Virus record (IMG/VR): IMGVR_UViG_3300049009_000874 | Span: 1-64,000 of that record | DNA from: a virus | Lineage: Duplodnaviria; Caudoviricetes | DNA: 64,000 nucleotides | Direction: 5' to 3' (one strand) | In this document: in pieces, positions 4,612 through 55,883 of the stretch | Numbering within the stretch: position 1 is the stretch's first letter | How the letters are laid out: each line of letters starts with the position of its first letter | Program-made: the position numbers and the translations under genes | The notes under the pieces: generated by a model | Told to the model about the DNA's origin: nothing | Databases searched by the model: none | Seen by the model: the letters and a program-made list of their open reading frames with translations, nothing else

Positions 4612-5058
4612 TTGAGAAGCCCATTCAACATCATCCTGTCGCTGGTCTGCCTTTCAATGCTCGTCATGGCGACCAAGAACAAGAACGAGATCAAGCTCAC
4701 GAAGGCGAACTCCGAGGGGCGTCCCGAAAAGCCGGCGGAGGCGACCTACCCAGGCATCATGGGGAAGGCGAAGTCCGAGGGTAGCCGAGTGGTCTTGGTT
4801 TTCGGGGCTGGATGGTGCGTATGGTGCCAGAAGCTGGAGTCCGAGACGCTGACCGCCTCGAGGGTGAAGTCCAAGATGGACGAGATGAAATTCCTCAAGC
4901 ACAAGGTCGACATCGAGAAAAACAAGGATATAGCCATGAGGTACAACGTCAAGTCCATCCCTGTCCTGATCCTGGTCGATGGCGACGAGAAGGTGGTCAG
5001 GAGGCATGATGGCTACATGAACGTCAAGGACACGGTTTCGTGGCTCGGCATCAACTGA
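4612..5058 (+). CDS. Thioredoxin-like protein with N-terminal hydrophobic signal/anchor
   Basis: FGAGWCVWCQKLE and YNVKSIPVLILVD; AGGAG SD before TTG 4612; hydrophobic IILSLVCLSMLVMA. Confidence 0.8.
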   Translation: MRSPFNIILSLVCLSMLVMATKNKNEIKLTKANSEGRPEKPAEATYPGIMGKAKSEGSRVVLVFGAGWCVWCQKLESETLTASRVKSKMDEMKFLKHKVDIEKNKDIAMRYNVKSIPVLILVDGDEKVVRRHDGYMNVKDTVSWLGIN

Positions 5059-5746
5059 ACTCGTTCGGGAAGGTTTTCCTGAAAAAGTCCCGGGCGTTAT
5101 CGTCGACCCCGTTCTCGTACAGCTTGATGTCGAAATTGAGCCTGGAAAGCATTTCCTCCCTGACCACCTTGGACATGAACGGCGACATCACCACGTAGTA
5201 TGGCGAGATCTTCCCGAAATTCATCCACCTGTACAGGGTACCGTCCGATTCAGCCTTCACGTATTCGGACATCGCCGGGCTTTCGCCGAGCTCCGCCTTC
5301 AGGAACGTCTTCGACTTCCTCAGGGCGTCGAGTATCTTTTGGTTCGAGACTTTCGAAGGCATGGCATCGGTCTTCATGTTGGCTATGGAGTCATACCTCC
5401 TCTTCCAGAGTTTCCACCTTCTCCAAGCCTTGTCGCCTATGAGGCATCCGGCGTCGACTGAAGGATGACCGTCGCCGATCTTGATGTTCTTGAGTATGTC
5501 TATCTGAGCCCTGATGTAGAGGTGGAACTCGTCGTCCTTCACGAGACCGCGGGTTTCCCTGATGAGCTTGTAGCAGAGCTTGAAAAGGTAGCTCTTCCTC
5601 GGGTCTCCCCTGCCCATGCCGGCGTTCTTGTAGTCGGGGAAAGCCTTGCTGCTCTTCTCGACCCAGATGAGACCGACCGTGTAGGCTAGCGATTCGGTCT
5701 CGTCCATCTTGTACTTGACTATGATCTTCTGCACTTCCTTGTCCAT
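5051..5746 (-). CDS. Hypothetical protein, divergent from the structured RNA/PolA locus
   Basis: ORF 5051..5776; AAGGAG SD before ATG 5746; C-terminal GKISPYY only weakly recalls gp59-like proteins. Confidence 0.75.
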   Translation of the reverse strand: MDKEVQKIIVKYKMDETESLAYTVGLIWVEKSSKAFPDYKNAGMGRGDPRKSYLFKLCYKLIRETRGLVKDDEFHLYIRAQIDILKNIKIGDGHPSVDAGCLIGDKAWRRWKLWKRRYDSIANMKTDAMPSKVSNQKILDALRKSKTFLKAELGESPAMSEYVKAESDGTLYRWMNFGKISPYYVVMSPFMSKVVREEMLSRLNFDIKLYENGVDDNARDFFRKTFPNEFS

Positions 5747-5873
5747 GGCAACTCCTTGTGCTATACAATATAGCACACTGCCTATGTTCTTGGCTACCGA
5801 TTTCGTTGGTCGGCGACATTTTTCTCATTGTTGAGAAAGCCAGCCACTTTATTTTATAAAACAAAATTAACCG

Positions 5874-5901
5874 TTGATTTCGTCGGGTTTCTTGGTATCT
5901 T
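5874..5901 (+). promoter_or_regulatory. Sigma70-like promoter firing into the ORF-free structured region
   Basis: TTGATT-16 nt-TATCTT with extended -10 TG. Confidence 0.55.
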
Positions 5902-5907
5902 AACCTT

Positions 5908-6445
5908 AACTTGTCACAGAAACCTTTGAGTAACGAAGACGGTAGCTTTCTCTACCACTTTGGATTCGGGAACTGAATGTACCCCAGCCCGGATCCGACT
6001 TCAGAAGAAACCTGAGCAGCCCTAACGGGTAAGTCTTTGTAGTAATTATTTTACGAATGGCGCCACGAGAGCCATTGTTATGCTCGGAATGCTAGGTAAG
6101 CCTTGGATAGAACAAAAAACGCCGACATCCGTTCTTGCAGACGAGGGAATGGACTAGCCAAGAGTTAGGACGCATAAACTGGTACTGTTGTTTTCGGTTT
6201 TAGGGTCGTCAACCCAAAGTTACGTTCCGTTTCGCGTTGTTTGGTCCGGAAAGCGAAAGAACAAATGTTTTTTTACTTGAAGGCGAAACAATGACGACGC
6301 GTATCGTCTCATTTCGTTTGTCGATCCAACTTGGCGGTATTTTGGGTTGAATGGTGTAGGATATGTTTAAACACAGAGCATTCCATTCGATTCAGATGTA
6401 GAAACAAGAGGATTCAAAGGGAATCCATATGTCTTTTACACTGAA
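5908..6445 (+). ncRNA. Candidate large structured non-coding RNA, family unknown (3' end may be at the T7 run 6268-6274)
   Basis: No listed ORF; many complementary arms, several with G-U pairs on the + strand: 5941-45/5952-56, 5962-70/5988-96, 5997-6001/6031-35, 6056-61/6071-76, 5928-36/6076-85, 6128-34/6147-53, 6410-15/6421-26. Confidence 0.55.
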
Positions 6446-6563
6446 CAAGATACAACACTAAGTCGGCACTCGTTTTATGGTAATTAAAGACAAACTTGGT
6501 AGGAATATACCAATTTGGCTGAATAGTGTTTGTTTTGCGACGATTATCGTGTATCATCCCATC

Positions 6564-7898
6564 ATGTTGCTAACAAACGAAACACAGATGATCTCGGCTC
6601 TAGCCGAACTTGACGCCGAAGGGGTCGTTTACTTCTCCTGCAGCGACGAAATACTCGACTTCACGGACAAGTCGAGGCATGGAGCCTATACGGTGGCTTT
6701 GTCTTCGAAAAAGGGCGTATACGAGTTCCTGGTGCATGACGAGTGGGCTGTTAGGTTGTTCGTGAAGGCTGCGTCGATGACCGTATTCACCAAGGGCAAG
6801 AAGGTCATAGCCTGGGACTGGAAGAATTTCTGCAGCTTCTGCCTCGGGAGACACGGCGTCAAGGTGGTCGTCGAATGCTCCCTGATCGACCTGAAGATAA
6901 TCGAGCATTACGTCGGGTTCAGGAACGAAAAGCCGAAAACGGTCGGCGAGTGCACGAGGCGTCTCAGGTCGGTCGTCGAGTCCGGGTGCTGGGACAAGCT
7001 CCAGGTCGTGTACAAGAGCGTCTACCTTCCCCTCGCCTGCGAGGTTCTCCCGTGCATGGAGACGATAGGCATCCTCGACAGGGAGAAGCTCCACGCCCAC
7101 TACGACATAGCCGGTCAGGAGAACGGGAGGCTGCTCTGCTTCAACGCGTACTCCAGGGGTTACGTGCCGCATGTCCTGACGCAGGAGCAGAAGGAATGCC
7201 TCAAGCCGATAGCGCTGGACCAGCTGTTCGTGTACCTCGACTACAGGAGCATGGAGGTCAGGGTTCTGGAGTGGCTCACGAAGGACGCGGAACTCACGAA
7301 GGCTTGCGAGTCGCCTGACATATACAAGGCTCTGTACGAGACGGTCACCAAGAACGCCTGCGACTCGCCCGAGAAAAGGTCGTTCTGCAAGTCGTTTTTC
7401 CTTCCCGTGTTCTACGGCATGTCGCCGTCCACCCTTTCGGAGAGGCTTGGCGTGTCGCAGTCCACGTCCGAGTCCATAGTGGACAGGGTCAGGAAGATAT
7501 TCCCTACGGCTTACGGTTGGGTCGAGAGGCAACAGGCGGAAGCCAAGGAAGCCGGCTTGTCCACGGATCTTTTCGGCAGGAGGAGGGTTCTGGAGGACAA
7601 GCACTACAGGGCTAGGAACTTCGCGGTCCAGTCGCCGGCGGCTCTGTTCTGCCTGAAAAAGCTCGTGCACCTGCACGAGTCATTGAAGGGCAAGGGTTCC
7701 GTCGCTTATAATGTGCATGACGGATACATGATCTATTCCAGCAGGGAGAATGTCAGGGAGGTGGTTCTGGCGGCGATGTCGGCTCTCCGTTCGGAGGACT
7801 CGGCGTTCCCGTCGCTGAGGATGGAGGTCTCCTGCTCCGTGGGCAGGCGGCTGACGGAGATGAGAGAGTTGAACGTCGCAAAAAAAGGAACAGCATGA
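6564..7898 (+). CDS. Atypical family A DNA polymerase: thumb deleted, degenerate 3'-5' exonuclease
   Basis: Motif A DYRSMEVR, motif B RSFCKSFFLPVFYG, FGRRR, NFAVQS, motif C VHDG; ORF open from 6477, likely start 6564. Confidence 0.8.
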   Translation: MLLTNETQMISALAELDAEGVVYFSCSDEILDFTDKSRHGAYTVALSSKKGVYEFLVHDEWAVRLFVKAASMTVFTKGKKVIAWDWKNFCSFCLGRHGVKVVVECSLIDLKIIEHYVGFRNEKPKTVGECTRRLRSVVESGCWDKLQVVYKSVYLPLACEVLPCMETIGILDREKLHAHYDIAGQENGRLLCFNAYSRGYVPHVLTQEQKECLKPIALDQLFVYLDYRSMEVRVLEWLTKDAELTKACESPDIYKALYETVTKNACDSPEKRSFCKSFFLPVFYGMSPSTLSERLGVSQSTSESIVDRVRKIFPTAYGWVERQQAEAKEAGLSTDLFGRRRVLEDKHYRARNFAVQSPAALFCLKKLVHLHESLKGKGSVAYNVHDGYMIYSSRENVREVVLAAMSALRSEDSAFPSLRMEVSCSVGRRLTEMRELNVAKKGTA

Positions 7899-8458
7899 AA
7901 AGCATATGTCAGTCCTTCCCGATAACGCACATGGAGTTCGAGGAGTTGAACAAGAGTTTCGGGAAGCTTTGCTTCTACGCAGCCCACCAGCTCCAGAAGA
8001 AGAATTCCAAGAACAACTACACCGACGACTTCGACGACATAAACCAGGAGCTCCAGCTATCGATAGTCCGCGCCGGGTCGTACTACAAGAGGCAGATATA
8101 CATAGAGAGGTGTTTCGAGGTCGTCTACGAGTACAATTCCGACCCGTTCCTTCTGGAGGTCGCGAACAAGCTCAGGGACCTGTGGACGAACCGCACGAGG
8201 CACGGAGCCAACCGCCAGAAGTTCGGAGCAAGGCAGGAGGTCATGCTCGAGAGGATGGTCATCAGGACCGTGCCGAGGGGCAAGAGACCCGACAGGATGT
8301 CGCCGCTCACCATCGACACCAAGTTCTCGACGTATTGCAAGGCTATAGTCTGGAACGGGCAGAAGAGCATGGGGAAGAAGATAACCAGGGAGAAGTCGAT
8401 AAGGAGCGGGCAGGTGTCGCTCTCGGAATTTGACTATTTGGGCTCAAGCGAATTATAA
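7895..8458 (+). CDS. Sigma70 region-2-like protein lacking region 4 (candidate phage sigma factor)
   Basis: DDINQELQLSIVRA resembles region 2.2 and TKFSTYCKAIVWN resembles region 2.3-2.4; ATGA overlap with polA. Confidence 0.55.
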   Translation: MKSICQSFPITHMEFEELNKSFGKLCFYAAHQLQKKNSKNNYTDDFDDINQELQLSIVRAGSYYKRQIYIERCFEVVYEYNSDPFLLEVANKLRDLWTNRTRHGANRQKFGARQEVMLERMVIRTVPRGKRPDRMSPLTIDTKFSTYCKAIVWNGQKSMGKKITREKSIRSGQVSLSEFDYLGSSEL

Positions 8459-8515: not shown

Positions 8516-9382
8516 GTGATGCAGCCCTGCGCCCCTTTCTCAAACACATCCATGAAGATAGTATACATACTTAACGAGTTCGAGTTCTACCTGTCTCTGG
8601 CGGTGTGCAGCATGACCACGCTAAGGAGGTACAACCCCGACATCCCGGTCGAGGTGTTCTACGTCTGCGACAGGGGCGAGAACAACAGGAACCTCGGGCG
8701 TCTCCCTTCCGGGAACATGCCCAAGGTAACGAGGAACGAGTTCATGCAATTCTGTTCCGACAAAAACGTCACGGTGAGAATGGTGGAGGACCTGGACATG
8801 GGTTCCGAGTCCAGGTACGCGCCGGTCCAGAGGATGTGCCTGTCCTCCCTGGGGGACGAGAGGGTGATGCTGATGGACGCCGACACGTTCGTGTTCGGCG
8901 ACGTGTCTGCTCTTTTCGGTCTTCTGGACGACTGCGACTTCGTCGCCGACAAGAACAACTACGGGGAGAAGGCGACCATAACGCACAACGGCGTCTGCCT
9001 TCGCCCGTTCAATTCGGGGGTCACGCTTTGGGGCGGTGGCATGCTCCGGGAATACGCCAAGGTCGTGTACGACTACTGCCTCGCGCTCAAGGATAGGAGG
9101 CACTACCTCGGGGAGTGGCTTTACAAGGTTAGTCCCGACGCCATAGGTCGCGAGGAACTAGCCTGCACGCTCTTCGTGGCGGACAGGAAACTGAGGTTCA
9201 GGTATTTCTCCCAGTCCGAGGTCCAGACCGGAAATCACCAGGGCGACACGCTGATCTACCACACGCTCACGCAGAACTGGATGGAATCGTACTTCAGGCT
9301 GAGAGGGCACGTCTTCGGCGAGAGCCGAAACAAGCCGAACATCAAGCCCATGCTGGTATCTCGGAAAAAGCGCTTTACTTGA
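8516..9382 (+). CDS. Glycosyltransferase (GT8-like, GT-A fold)
   Basis: RVMLMDADTFV (DxD) and FNSGVTLW; start 8516, 8519 or 8552. Confidence 0.75.
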   Translation: MMQPCAPFSNTSMKIVYILNEFEFYLSLAVCSMTTLRRYNPDIPVEVFYVCDRGENNRNLGRLPSGNMPKVTRNEFMQFCSDKNVTVRMVEDLDMGSESRYAPVQRMCLSSLGDERVMLMDADTFVFGDVSALFGLLDDCDFVADKNNYGEKATITHNGVCLRPFNSGVTLWGGGMLREYAKVVYDYCLALKDRRHYLGEWLYKVSPDAIGREELACTLFVADRKLRFRYFSQSEVQTGNHQGDTLIYHTLTQNWMESYFRLRGHVFGESRNKPNIKPMLVSRKKRFT

Positions 9383-38928: not shown

Positions 38929-40284
38929 ATGAAGGTTGAAATCGTCGGTTTCGAGCATTTGCATTTACACTCCGACTTCTCCGTCCTCGACGGGCTTGGA
39001 ACGTGCGAGGAGTACGCCCTCCGCGCCACCCAGATAAACCAGAACTTCCTCACCATCAGCGACCACGGAATGCTCGGCGCCGTACCGAGGCAGATACGAG
39101 CCTGCGACAAGGTCTGCGACAAGTTCGGCAAGGACAAGCTTTCCCCCATATTCGCCACCGAGCTTTACGTCAACAGGCTTCAGCCGCAGAGCAACTCGCT
39201 CGAGGACATGCAGAAGTTCTCTGGAGACCTTTCCCCCGAAGAGTTGCTGGAGCTCCGCCCAAGCCCCCACCTCCTCGCCATAGCGCACAATGAGATCGGC
39301 TACAAGAACCTCGTGAGGCTCACCAGCTGGGGCTGGACCAAGGGGTTCTACCGCAAGCCGAGGGTGAACTACGAGCAGCTCGAGAAGCACAAGGAGGGCT
39401 TGCTCTTCACGAGCTGCTGCTACAACAGCGAGATCGGGCGGGCGTTCGAGTCCGGCGGCGAGGAGGCTGCGCTCTCCATGATCGACAGGTATGTCGGGAT
39501 GTTCGGCAGGGAGAACTATTTCCTCGAGATAATGCTGCTTGATTTCGTGAAGCAGAAGCCCTACGACGCCTTCATAGTCAAGGCTCACCAGAAGACTGGT
39601 CTGAAGATAATCCTTTCGAACGACGTCCACTACTGCCGCAAGGAGGACAGCAAGCTGCAGCGTCTCATGCTGATGGTGCAGACCGGCAGGACGATACAGG
39701 ACATAGAGAAAGCCATGAAGGAGGACTCCATGCAGGACTTCTTCGAGCTGCAGGACAGCAACCTCTGGATGAAGTCGGAGGAGGAGATCAACGAGAAGTG
39801 GCTGAGCCACTACAGCGACGTCATCCCTTACGAGATATTCTGCGAAGCCAAGAAGAACACGGTCGAGATTTGCAGGAAGGCGAAAGGGGTGCAGCTGGAC
39901 AGGAGCCTGAAGCTTCCCGTCTTCCCGGACTGCGACGAGAGGCTCAAGGAATATGTCGTCATCGGGTTCAGGGGCAGGAATCTCCCTTCGACCAGGGAAT
40001 ACAGGGACAGGATCAAGGAGGAGCTCAGCCTTATCATAAGGAAGGGGTTCAGCACGTACTTCCTCATCCAGAAGATGATGACGGACGAGGCTAGGAAATG
40101 GTGCAGGGAGAACGTCGGCGGCGACGGGACCCAGGCTGTGGGTCCGGGGCGCGGATCCGCTTGCGGTTCGCTGGTGTGCTACTGTCTAGGGATAACGGAC
40201 GTCGACCCGGTCTACGAAGGTCTGCTGTTCAGCAGGTTCATGAGCGAAGCCCGCGGGGGAAGGTCTATCTGCTTCGATGCCTGA
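38929..40284 (+). CDS. dnaE: DNA polymerase III alpha, N-terminal part (PHP domain plus first half of palm)
   Basis: HLHLHSDFSVLDG, SDHG, NDVHY, GPGRGSACGSLVCYCLGITDVDP, LLFSRFMSEAR, then stop. Confidence 0.92.
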   Translation: MKVEIVGFEHLHLHSDFSVLDGLGTCEEYALRATQINQNFLTISDHGMLGAVPRQIRACDKVCDKFGKDKLSPIFATELYVNRLQPQSNSLEDMQKFSGDLSPEELLELRPSPHLLAIAHNEIGYKNLVRLTSWGWTKGFYRKPRVNYEQLEKHKEGLLFTSCCYNSEIGRAFESGGEEAALSMIDRYVGMFGRENYFLEIMLLDFVKQKPYDAFIVKAHQKTGLKIILSNDVHYCRKEDSKLQRLMLMVQTGRTIQDIEKAMKEDSMQDFFELQDSNLWMKSEEEINEKWLSHYSDVIPYEIFCEAKKNTVEICRKAKGVQLDRSLKLPVFPDCDERLKEYVVIGFRGRNLPSTREYRDRIKEELSLIIRKGFSTYFLIQKMMTDEARKWCRENVGGDGTQAVGPGRGSACGSLVCYCLGITDVDPVYEGLLFSRFMSEARGGRSICFDA

Positions 40285-53144: not shown

Positions 53145-55883
53145 ATGCTTAATTCTTACGAAAAGATAGAGAAACTTCTCTGGCACATATTCGACCGCAA
53201 GAGCCTTTCCGACAAGCACAGGAAGAGGCTGGAGTGGGAACTCCGCGAGATAGATGTCCAAGGGAAGTCCGACCACCTCATAAAGATGTTCAAGGACAAG
53301 GTTCGGTGTGACGGAAACGAGAACAACCTGATTTCATTCTGGCTCCTTGGCTTGTGCCAAGAATTCGACGTGGACCGCGACCCGAAATTCACTCAGGGCG
53401 ACATGCCGGACATAGACGTCGACTATCTCAGCGAGGTCAGGGACTACCTGAAGAACAAGTGGGCTTGCGAGACGTTTGGCGTGGACTACGTCTGCAACAT
53501 CGGCAACTACACGACCTTCGGAATCAAGAGCGCGTTGATCGACATGGCTAGGGTTCACGGTCTTCCAAGGGGTGATATGCTCGAGCTAACCAAGAACCTC
53601 GACGCCAAGGACGACGAGGGGAAGACGATGACCTGGGAGTCGGCGATGAACCTCTACCCGAAACTCAAGGAGTACTGCGACGCCAACCCGGACGTTGCCG
53701 AGTCGGCGCGCAAGCTCATAAACAGGAACAGGGGCATGGGTCAGCACGCCGGGGGTCTGATCATATCGTCGATGCCACTCCACGATCTGGTGCCGCTCGT
53801 GAAGAGGAAGGACAATCCGCAGGCGTCAGCCTGGGTCGAGGGTCTGAACGGACAGGACCTCCAGCCAGTCGGTCTGGTGAAGTTCGACCTCCTCGTGATC
53901 TCGAACCTGCAGCAGATATCGAGTTGCTGCGAGCTCGTGAAGAAAAACCACAACATGGACAGCATATGCGCCCTCCCCGGGCAGTCAGACTGGAGCGACG
54001 TCCAGAGGTGGAGGAACGACCCGAAGTCTTTGGCTATGGCTGACGTCGGGGACCTGAAGTGCATATTCCAGTTCGACAGCGAGGGCATCAGGAGGCTGGT
54101 CAAGTCCGGGGGCGTGGACCGTTTCGAGGATCTCGTGGCGTATACAGCCCTCTACAGACCCGGTCCGCTCGGAATGCTCATGCATGAAAGGTACACCAAG
54201 AGGAAGAGGGGCGAGGAGTCCTACGAGTTGCACCCGCTGGTCCAGCCAATACTCGGCGACACGTACGGGGTGATGGTGTACCAGGAGCAGATCATGCGCA
54301 TACTGAACAAGGTGGGCGAGATCCCGCTGCGGGACTGCGAGATCGTGCGGAAGGCTATATCCAAGAAAAAGGTCGAGGCATTCCAGAAGTACAAGAACAT
54401 GTTTGTCTCAAACGGACAGAGGAACCTCCAGACGACGGAGGAGGACATCATCAGCCTTTGGAATCAGGTCCAGGCTTTTTCTGAGTACGGATTCAATAAA
54501 AGCCATGCCGTCGCGTACACCTACGTCTCGGCGAGGCTGCTTTACTTCAAAGCCCATTACCCGCATGAGTTCTACACCTCGGTTCTGGGCTGCGAGACCT
54601 TGTCGGAGAAGATCAAGGAGTACAAGATAGAAGCCAAGAACCACGGCGTCGACATGCACGGCGTCGACATCAACAAGTCGAAGTCCACCTTCGAGCTGGT
54701 TGGGGATTCCATCTATTACGGTCTATCGAACGTCAAGGGCGTAGGTCAGGTTCCGGCGAAGAAGATCGTCGACAACCAGCCCTACGCCGGGTTCGAGGAT
54801 TTCCTCACGAGGTTCGGCACGGACGCCAACATAGTGAAGTGCGTCGTTGGTCTAAGGTGCTTCAGTGACTCGAACCCGATAACCTTGTGGAAGTTCTACG
54901 AGCACTTCAAGGAATGCCAGAAAAAGCTCGACGACAAGAAGAAAAGGTTCCTGGCGAGCATGGAGCAGTACGACGTCGAATTCCTCGAGCTTTTCCCCGG
55001 AGAGACCAGAAGCCTTTCCGAATTCCACGGCGACAGCCCATTCGACGGACCGGAATGGGCTGGCTTCGACATCGACGAGGTCATAGAGACCGAGAAGACC
55101 GTCGAGTGCGACCAGAGCCAGGGCAAGCCGAAGCTCGAGATGGAGTATGTCCCGATCCAGGGCACCGACGACTTCGTCGAGGTCCAGACGATCAGGAACT
55201 ACAAGTCGATCAAGGTGAAAAAGAACTGGAACAGGCTGAAGGAGCTGAAGAGGCTGTGGTCGAGAAGGGAAAAAGCCATGGCTAGGCTCGAGGACTCCAA
55301 GTCGTTGTCGCTGCCGACGCTCGCCTCGTTCAAGCCAAACGATTTCGAGATAGACAAGGATTTCGCCAAGGAACTGCGGAACAAGGTAGCCTGCGAGATG
55401 AAGTATTACGGTTTCGCCTGGATACACAACGTGGAGAACAGCCCGGACTTCAAGGGCAACACGTTCCAGACGCTGAGGGAGAACGACGGCTGCGTCTGCC
55501 CCGTCGAGGTCGAGGTCGTCTCGAGGAAGGTTTGCAAGAGCAAGAAGGGCAATTCCTACCTGCAGCTCGAGGTCGAGGACGCCATGGGCGAGAAAAACCG
55601 CCTGAACGTCTGGGAGGACGATGTTGCCCGCTGGGACAGAGAAATGAAGAAGGGTAACTTACTTAGGTTGAGGCTGATGCCGCCGGACAAGGGCTTCTCA
55701 ACGTATACCCTGGAACAGAACAAGAAGATGCCGAACAAGGGCTGGGCTTACAGGTTTCCGACCAAGGACAGCGACTACAGGGTTTTCGTGATGAAGCCGC
55801 CGGTGTCGGCGGAGGACAAGTACCAGACCGAGGACGAGGTTCTGGAACAGTTTGGAAATTGCATAATGGAGGACAAGAAATGA
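53145..55883 (+). CDS. dnaE: DNA polymerase III alpha, C-terminal part (catalytic aspartates, fingers, HhH, OB)
   Basis: MPDIDVDY, GQHAGG, VKFDLL, IFQFDS, ALYRPGP, YQEQIM, YGFNKSHAVAY, GLSNVKGVG. Confidence 0.92.
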   Translation: MLNSYEKIEKLLWHIFDRKSLSDKHRKRLEWELREIDVQGKSDHLIKMFKDKVRCDGNENNLISFWLLGLCQEFDVDRDPKFTQGDMPDIDVDYLSEVRDYLKNKWACETFGVDYVCNIGNYTTFGIKSALIDMARVHGLPRGDMLELTKNLDAKDDEGKTMTWESAMNLYPKLKEYCDANPDVAESARKLINRNRGMGQHAGGLIISSMPLHDLVPLVKRKDNPQASAWVEGLNGQDLQPVGLVKFDLLVISNLQQISSCCELVKKNHNMDSICALPGQSDWSDVQRWRNDPKSLAMADVGDLKCIFQFDSEGIRRLVKSGGVDRFEDLVAYTALYRPGPLGMLMHERYTKRKRGEESYELHPLVQPILGDTYGVMVYQEQIMRILNKVGEIPLRDCEIVRKAISKKKVEAFQKYKNMFVSNGQRNLQTTEEDIISLWNQVQAFSEYGFNKSHAVAYTYVSARLLYFKAHYPHEFYTSVLGCETLSEKIKEYKIEAKNHGVDMHGVDINKSKSTFELVGDSIYYGLSNVKGVGQVPAKKIVDNQPYAGFEDFLTRFGTDANIVKCVVGLRCFSDSNPITLWKFYEHFKECQKKLDDKKKRFLASMEQYDVEFLELFPGETRSLSEFHGDSPFDGPEWAGFDIDEVIETEKTVECDQSQGKPKLEMEYVPIQGTDDFVEVQTIRNYKSIKVKKNWNRLKELKRLWSRREKAMARLEDSKSLSLPTLASFKPNDFEIDKDFAKELRNKVACEMKYYGFAWIHNVENSPDFKGNTFQTLRENDGCVCPVEVEVVSRKVCKSKKGNSYLQLEVEDAMGEKNRLNVWEDDVARWDREMKKGNLLRLRLMPPDKGFSTYTLEQNKKMPNKGWAYRFPTKDSDYRVFVMKPPVSAEDKYQTEDEVLEQFGNCIMEDKK

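Follow-up and report, generated by a model that had tools for sequence, protein, structure and literature searches.

A conserved structured RNA upstream of a short family A DNA polymerase gene in a group of phages

The longest gene-free gap, of ~800 nucleotides (nt), in a 64,000-nt stretch of phage DNA (Duplodnaviria; Caudoviricetes) lies immediately upstream of a gene for a short family A DNA polymerase (PolA), and the question is what the gap specifies and whether its product serves the polymerase. The stretch, termed the window, covers the initial 64 kb of the 189-kb IMG/VR virus record IMGVR_UViG_3300049009_000874. CheckV assigns this record a completeness of 39%, thus the phage is probably large. 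A preliminary description, made from the letters of the window, proposed that the gap encodes a large structured RNA that works together with the polymerase. The gap holds a conserved structured RNA on the + strand, and this RNA is co-inherited with the short PolA gene in one half of the polymerase family. The proposed joint action with PolA fares less well, and other roles are weighed below. Coordinates are given in Table 1.

A conserved structured RNA in the gap

Open reading frames (ORFs) of at least 80 amino acids (aa) are absent from a stretch of 612 nt (positions 5865-6476), the longest of its kind in the window; the runner-up is 246 nt, in keeping with the claim that this is the largest gene-free gap. 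No credible ORF is found between the minus-strand ATG at 5747 and PolA under translation table 11, with TAG=Q, or under table 4. The gap folds better than shuffled controls on the + strand (z -4.8), but not clearly better on the - strand (z -1.9). Its conservation is without a three-base period and is higher than that of the flanking proteins. PolA homologues in IMG/VR share the same layout of a gap, the PolA gene and an ORF of ~186 aa. In lineage L006 the gap is enlarged to 1.28 kb and has a 215-aa ORF upstream of the RNA (L006:2808-3455), which is not found in other lineages.

Homologous RNA is present upstream of short (~430-445 aa) family A polymerase genes in 26 distinct phage loci, with PolA identities down to ~35%. 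Covariance model (CM) R1, built on the 5′ domain (window 5932-6088), matches 20 further loci in which PolA identity is 35-44%, and a second model, R2, adds three more. The matches are always on the PolA strand, 350-600 nt upstream of PolA, and there is one RNA copy in the 189-kb record of the window. In most relatives the RNA is 430-480 nt long, with its ends placed by the onset of conservation and the 3′ pseudoknots. The RNA core is ~80% identical across lineages in which PolA is only ~50% identical.

Important are the compensatory changes. RNAalifold analysis of six lineages gives 91 base pairs, 40 of which show a compensatory change. In the 5′ domain, all 25 nested pairs change on both sides in an alignment of 29 sequences, and 97.5% of cells are paired as opposed to 37-49% when the strands are slid, although this alignment was fitted to the model and its paired percentages are inflated. 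An unfitted MAFFT alignment of 11 sequences has 98.8% paired cells against 36-50% after sliding, with two-sided changes in 10 of the 25 pairs. Invariant G-U pairs are valid on the + strand only, as the preliminary description had noted for its own helices. Thus compensatory changes exceed the controls and do so on one strand, which is what is generally expected of a structured noncoding RNA, and conserved structure beside PolA homologues, which that description left for comparative analysis, is found at the 26 loci.

Several wider searches returned chance matches. A pattern scan with GGTAAGTCTTNGTAGT gives 79 loci, and beyond the known contigs and L029 all are chance; gapped-pattern matches in L100 and L101 were rejected for the same reason. 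A metagenome scan recovers the same lineages again, and its additions, L108 and L111, are chance matches. Four metagenome-assembled genomes matched in the genome-contig scan have neither a CM match nor a nearby PolA gene and were likewise discarded; no prophage or host context of the RNA was found in that scan.

The fold comprises at least 12 helices arranged in three domains, which are tied by three long-range pseudoknots (PK0, PK1 and PK2). RNAalifold recovers the same 5′-domain helices as the CM. The preliminary description closed a multibranch domain with a helix of 5928-36 and 6076-85; covariation instead pairs 6081-6097 with 6010-6018, and this earlier helix is replaced by H4. Helices H8 to H10 of the second domain show compensatory changes in the six sequences of the RNAalifold analysis, and the stem of H14 in the third domain covaries (UA/GC/AU and UA/CG).

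Table 1. Features of the PolA locus and the window
Feature	Position	Strand	Remarks
Divergent upstream gene	5051-5747	-	~231 aa from ATG 5747; no known family
Candidate σ70-type promoter	5874-5901	+	-35 TTGATT 5874-5879, 16-nt spacer, extended -10 TGgTATCTT 5893-5901
Structured RNA	5909-6477	+	~570 nt in window; nhmmer and CM matches in relatives, covariation
Hairpin H2	5941-5945/5952-5956	+	5/5 pairs covary, 100% of cells paired, 29 sequences
Hairpin H3a	5962-5970/5988-5996	+	Stem kept with lineage-specific sequences (alignments read by eye)
Multibranch 5′ domain	6010-6097	+	Closing helix H4 6010-6018/6081-6097; CM R1 and R2
Helices inside H4	H5 6019-6022/6027-6030; H6 6042-6044/6052-6054; H7 6056-6061/6071-6076	+	
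Conserved junction AAGUCUUUGUA	6031-6041	+	Single-stranded; first five bases are copy 1
Second domain	6089-6175	+	H8 6089-6093/6171-6175; H9 6102-6110/6154-6162; H10 6127-6136/6145-6153
PK0 3′ strand GGUAC	6181-6185	+	Pairs with GUACC 5979-5983
Hairpin insertion	6195-6320	+	Lineage of the window only; absent in all other lineages
Third domain	6324-6394	+	H12 6324-6328/6343-6347; H13 6348-6357/6384-6394
Hairpin H14	6364-6366/6373-6375	+	In third domain; invariant loop UUAAAC 6367-6372
3′ tail	6460-6472	+	PK1 6460-6467/6121-6128; PK2 CUCG 6469-6472/CGAG 6066-6069
A/U-rich motif AATTAAAGACAAA	6482-6494	+	Conserved; right after the RNA, at constant distance from the tail across clades
TATCAT	6552-6557	+	6 nt before PolA ATG; candidate -10 box
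Short family A DNA polymerase	6564-7898	+	444 aa from likely start
187-aa protein	7895-8458	+	Basic, all-helical; candidate σ region 2 domain with insertion
DnaE pieces	39982-40254 and 53394-53894		Profile positions 17-98 in one, 98-259 in the other

The 5′ strand of PK0 is in the loop of H3a. Automatic searching for the longest helix gave too many chance helices to reveal PK0, and the alignments were used in its place; read by eye, these show eight pair states in 18 sequences (GUACC/GGUAC, GUAUC/GAUAC, GAUACC/GGUAUC, GUACU/AGUAC, GCGCU/AGCGC, GCACU/AGUGC, GUGCU/AGCAC and GCGUU/AACGC). In the near clade the PK0 helix is also predicted by RNAalifold on six lineages. PK1 joins the 3′ tail to strand X (6121-6128) of the second domain and is found unaided by RNAalifold; PK2 joins the tail to the loop of H7. 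The two pseudoknots clamp the tail to the middle and 5′ domains. Taken together, PK1 and PK2 have 92.6% of cells paired compared with 22-42% when slid, and four of the 12 pairs show double-sided changes (CG/UA/AU, AU/GC and GC/CG). The PK2 states CGAG/CUCG, CGGG/CCCG and CAAG/CUUG are without exception in 25 sequences, and CAAG/CUUG is found in five further lineages.

A short sequence is repeated within the RNA. The run of five to eight bases next to H5 on its 3′ side (copy 1, 6031-6035) is identical to the start of the tail (6460-6464) within every RNA, and the two vary together through seven states (AAGUC, GAGUC, GAGAC, GGGUC, AGGUC, AGAACCUU and AAGUA). Both copy 1 and the start of the tail are able to pair with strand X. 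Since the tail start has the sequence of copy 1 and pairs with X, the arrangement is read as a strand exchange, in which X would first be held by the upstream copy 1 and then pass to the tail; this might be a step in folding or a switch. Lineage L148 runs counter to this reading, as it has a change common to copy 1 and the tail without compensation in X.

Distribution of the RNA and neighboring genes

The short PolA family comprises 227 clusters at E ≤ 1e-30, and a gene of ~186 aa follows PolA at almost every locus. A quick maximum-likelihood tree (IQ-TREE) of 47 PolA proteins was labeled for presence or absence of the RNA. One half of the tree is RNA-negative throughout (16 of 16), and the other half has 26 RNA-positive members together with five RNA-negative ones in three nested groups. 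RNA presence is clustered, with four changes on the tree as opposed to 15.5 when the labels are shuffled. In the remaining 21 of the 47 loci PolA is just as short (428-450 aa) and is followed by the same small gene, with no detectable RNA. Five RNA-negative records, one of them a 533-kb record that is 100% complete, contain no RNA copy over their whole length. The RNA is thus a clade-specific companion of the locus and not a need of the polymerase.

Some RNA-negative loci have other sequences upstream of PolA. In LR756511.1 (L198, a 595-kb phage) an ORF of 387 aa (992-2155) that belongs to no Pfam family occupies the place of the RNA and overlaps the PolA start, and a 551-aa ORF is in this place in L188 and L189. 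Another conserved noncoding block is found in L191:1725-2110, L197:1700-2100 and L195:1700-2010; it contains the hairpin GACAG/CUGUC, in which one change is compensated, and a small basic ORF comes next. The block may represent a different RNA at the corresponding place. The gap of L137 (L137:2248-3000) has tail-like motifs, TAAGTACCGCCGGCACTCGGG near its 5′ side and CCCGGCCACCCGCTTTTGAG near PolA; this lineage may carry a rearranged or highly divergent version of the RNA that was missed by the CM.

The polymerase itself is readily assigned. It matches Pfam DNA_pol_A (PF00476) at 1.4e-25, with 90.5 bits against a cut-off of 34.3, and has PDB profile matches to Taq and Bst polymerases at 1e-16 and Foldseek matches at 1e-15. 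The start is probably at 6564, as first suggested, because the alignment with homologues begins only at residue ~30 of the long ORF. Motifs A and B are kept (D226, E231, R272, K276 and Y284-G285), and the steric-gate Glu (E231) and the metal-binding Asp are invariant. Motif C reads VHDG in all six close lineages, not HDE, and D386 is invariant in 33 sequences. The profile alignment begins at Taq residue 558, which leaves ~173 N-terminal residues for an exonuclease-like domain and the thumb. This portion is poorly modeled (predicted local distance difference test score, pLDDT, < 50); judged from sequence, the thumb is likely to be reduced or lost.

The PolA stop codon overlaps the start of the 187-aa gene (ATGA, 7895-7898), consistent with the proposed translational coupling. 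The 187-aa protein is 73-76% identical between lineages in which PolA is ~50% identical. It had been described as a sigma-2-only protein, and here the outcome is mixed: the predicted fold weakly resembles σ region 2 (σ2), while no Pfam, PHROG or PDB sequence match was obtained and Foldseek gives none below E 0.5. In VIA-align, σ2 domains (SigB, σ28, SigE, SigK, σ70, RpoS and σ32) take up ~14 of the 50 best rows, with Z scores of 5.3-6.6 that are in the noise range for helical bundles. A high-confidence Atlas lead points from the protein to a viral cluster in which 34% of members have Sigma70_r2. Residues ~66-129 form a helical hairpin in the model that resembles an insertion in a σ2-like bundle. 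The simplest reading would be a late σ factor similar to gp55 of phage T4, which is of similar size (~185 aa) and has the same σ2-only logic. The 187-aa gene is likewise in a replication cluster beside a glycosyltransferase gene, an arrangement that recalls T4, where gene 55 adjoins α-gt. In contrast to gp55, the protein is without a sequence match to any PHROG or Pfam σ family, and the Z scores are those given above.

The gene order around the gap is thioredoxin-like gene, minus-strand gene, gap, short PolA, 187-aa ORF, GT8-like glycosyltransferase and DnaB helicase, the last being 3 kb downstream of the RNA and PolA. The GT8-like gene (8516-9382), with a weak Pfam match below the cut-off, is between the 187-aa gene and DnaB, and a NUDIX gene replaces it in some relatives. 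The divergent upstream gene is found in several relatives, and L029 and others have other upstream genes, so that there is no constant neighbor of the RNA on that side. DnaE, reported in the preliminary description, is indeed in the window; its DNA_pol3_alpha catalytic domain is split over two open frames 13 kb apart. ARAGORN detects no tRNA or tmRNA genes in the window. Metagenomes with near-identical DNA are from lake, estuary, runoff and drinking-water samples.

Transcription and possible roles of the RNA

The σ70-type promoter that had been assigned to the gap holds as a candidate. It was read from the sequence, and the start expected from it is at ~5908-5909; a simple promoter scanner did not list it. 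Relatives have counterparts at the same place: L170 has TTGACA-17-TATAAT, a 12/12 consensus match with TG; L157 has TTGCAA-17-TACAAT; and L006, L009 and L110 have TATAAT boxes. No intrinsic terminator is found between the RNA and PolA in the four lineages scanned, thus read-through into PolA is likely and the RNA probably heads the PolA transcript.

Between the RNA and PolA the spacer is variable, with 79-229 nt separating the tail and the start codon in different lineages, and in L135 a 66-aa ORF lies between them. The A/U-rich motif that follows the tail reads GATTGTAAATAAAAATT in the distant clade. It was considered as a promoter recurring in the window and was rejected, with five matches against 3.7 expected. 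Farther downstream, TATCAT could be the -10 box of a leaderless PolA mRNA, judging from its position. TATCAT-N6-ATG is present also in L135 and L184 (with the window, three higher-GC lineages), TAATAT-N6-ATG in L029 and CATAAT-N6-GTG in L148, and other lineages have clear Shine-Dalgarno sites. Given this variation by lineage, start-site usage for PolA may differ between hosts. Sequestration of the ribosome-binding site by the tail was also tried and rejected: pairing of the tail with its own PolA start region is no better than with non-cognate ones (-9.4 vs -9.0 kcal/mol, sd 3.4).

The explanation tentatively preferred is that the RNA represents a new class of large folded RNA, which might be a stable RNA, the core or part of a ribonucleoprotein (RNP), or a ribozyme. 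The host RNA polymerase would start early at the σ70-type promoter of the RNA, and the transcript, with the RNA at its head, would probably extend over PolA and the σ2-like gene. The function of the RNA would then be that of a folded particle belonging to the replication and late-transcription module, and not that of a leader with a plain on/off response. The variable spacer, the lack of cognate pairing between tail and start region, and the lack of a terminator that might serve as an expression platform suggest that it is not a classical leader.

A number of points weigh against this explanation. The ends, stability and processing of the RNA are all deduced; PK0 was taken by eye from the alignment, and the CM is limited to the 5′ domain. 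A 5′ leader would account just as well for the missing terminator, the constant orientation and the location immediately before PolA, and the two co-varying 5-mers resemble the alternative pairings of a riboswitch or attenuator. The RNA has no known partner, ligand or catalytic activity, and the assignment to replication or late transcription comes from the gene neighborhood and nothing else.

A leader function is a serious possibility, although judged less probable. In that case the fold would be a cis-acting 5′ leader, of giant size, for the operon of PolA and the σ2-like gene. It would respond to a ligand, to a physical signal or to a protein, for which PolA and the 187-aa protein are conceivable candidates, and the exchange of X between copy 1 and the 3′ tail would set the output of the downstream genes. 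It would account for the same orientation directly upstream of PolA in all 26 loci, for a strong σ70 promoter before the RNA with no intrinsic terminator before PolA, for the conserved locus-specific motif between tail and PolA, and for the parallel variation of two segments able to pair with X, which is reminiscent of terminator/antiterminator logic. There is precedent of both kinds: T4 gp43 represses its own mRNA via an RNA operator, and Clostridioides difficile has a group I ribozyme controlled by cyclic di-GMP in a 5′ untranslated region. However, no expression platform was found in the form of a terminator or of tail pairing favoring the cognate start region, and the spacer varies and can contain an ORF. 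The -10-like box 6 nt before the PolA start in several lineages suggests a separate promoter, and RNA-negative lineages nested among the RNA-positive ones retain the same operon. The size and the three pseudoknots are, in addition, far beyond those of known bacterial leaders.

That the RNA is a dedicated partner of PolA, as the preliminary description supposed, is unlikely. It would serve as template, primer or scaffold for the reduced thumb, together with the 187-aa protein, as an analogue on a family A enzyme of retrons, defense-associated reverse transcriptases (DRTs) and telomerase. Consistent with this, the RNA is co-inherited with PolA and a small basic protein over PolA identities down to ~35%, and conservation of the small protein reaches a level common among RNA-binding proteins; motif C has the unusual HDG, only ~170 residues precede the palm, and some family A polymerases can copy RNA. 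But the equally short PolA occurs without the RNA in 21 of 47 loci, small gene included, with no copy elsewhere in the five whole records. The steric-gate Glu and metal-binding Asp are invariant as in ordinary DNA-dependent DNA polymerases, no template-like repeat or product-like DNA is seen, and adjacency is the only link between the RNA and PolA. Equally doubtful is the stronger form, in which the RNA is a catalytic or obligate subunit with the thumb-poor PolA and the σ2-like protein, for RNA-guided, RNA-primed or RNA-templated DNA synthesis or as a transcription-coupling machine; RNA-negative relatives would then use another RNA (the L191/195/197 element) or a protein (the 387-aa ORF of LR756511.1) instead.

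An origin transcript is very unlikely. Such an RNA, comparable to ColE1 RNA II or to the origin transcripts of phages T4 and T7, would form a lasting RNA-DNA hybrid that is processed and extended by the phage PolA for replication to begin, with DnaB and DnaE taking over afterwards. A σ70 promoter, a ~500-nt structured RNA, PolA and DnaB 3 kb downstream are all at hand, PolA is not the main replicase because a split DnaE is present, and the cumulative GC skew has a minimum near the left end of the window. The skew, however, tracks gene orientation, and position 1 is a cut end of the record; neither iterons nor a DNA unwinding element are seen, and RNA-negative relatives replicate without the RNA. 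Three pseudoknots that covary are more in keeping with an RNA folded compactly on its own than with a hybrid.

Finally, two readings without an RNA can scarcely be maintained, namely that the gap is a conserved DNA element that serves for packaging or as binding sites, or that it encodes protein in a different genetic code: the region is conserved between divergent genes, and huge phages sometimes recode stop codons, but the Watson-Crick and G-U compensatory changes keep pairs on one strand only, there is no long ORF under TAG=Q or table 4, and conservation is without a three-base period and exceeds that of the flanking proteins.

Comparison with known RNAs

A match to a known Rfam family, which the preliminary description had raised, was not found. 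Rfam 15, with families that include GOLLD, ROOL, OLE, HEARO, RNase P RNA, tmRNA, 6S, group I and II introns and riboswitches, gives no gathering-level match in the window; E ≤ 10 yields three chance-level matches to eukaryotic families within 5700-6620, and nothing over the RNA in 11 relatives. Literature searches gave no description of a large PolA-associated RNA, and pieces of this one might be present in a catalogue of ~10,000 candidate viral RNAs (PMC10690425). The novelty concerns the RNA family: large ornate phage RNAs are known as a wider category, and an RNA-PolA system is conjectural.

ColE1 RNA II is similar in being a σ70-driven, folded RNA of ~0.5 kb in a replication context with a Pol I-type enzyme. 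RNA II, however, works in the form of a hybrid with DNA and lacks a conserved core of pseudoknots, and no origin features were found at the PolA locus. Retrons, DRTs and telomerase share with this locus a structured noncoding RNA that is co-inherited with a polymerase gene directly downstream. The neighboring enzyme here is of family A with a steric-gate Glu and is not a reverse transcriptase; in further contrast, there is no template or repeat feature, and the same polymerase is widely found without the RNA.

Long-range helices that clamp domains, as in the RNA described here, are found in the group I intron core and in RNase P RNA (the P4 pseudoknot). The order of strands (PK0 5′, 5′ domain, PK1 5′, PK0 3′, hairpins, PK1 3′) is similar to that of the P3-P7 core of group I introns, and the GACU/AGUC core of PK1 recalls their R/S pairing. 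However there is no Rfam match in 12 lineages, flanking exons are lacking, and P1, a G-binding site and the CR-I to CR-V motifs are not recognizable. The H4 domain also differs from P4-P6 in that it encloses three hairpins.

To our knowledge, few natural RNAs have such size and tertiary complexity. Large RNAs with a solved function are ribozymes, RNP cores or self-assembling particles, and through this RNA a novel function of RNA might come to light in the program by which large phages replicate or time their genes. With three well-supported pseudoknots, ~30 diverse sequences and a fixed genomic partner, it is ready for structure determination and biochemistry, and the constant PolA/σ2-like neighborhood supplies concrete candidates for its partners.

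The closest likeness is to GOLLD, ROOL and OLE, large ornate RNAs of bacteria and phages whose functions are at best partly understood. These differ from the new RNA, which does not match their covariance models at E ≤ 10, is not beside tRNA genes (none being in the window), and is tied to one neighborhood, that of the short PolA and σ2-like genes, and to large freshwater phages. In other respects the resemblance is extensive: the RNA is hundreds of nt long with many helices and pseudoknots, is phage-borne, has no ORF, was found by comparative genomics and is conserved in sequence more than its neighboring proteins. GOLLD and ROOL have recently been shown to be self-assembling particles (bioRxiv 10.1101/2024.12.08.627333).

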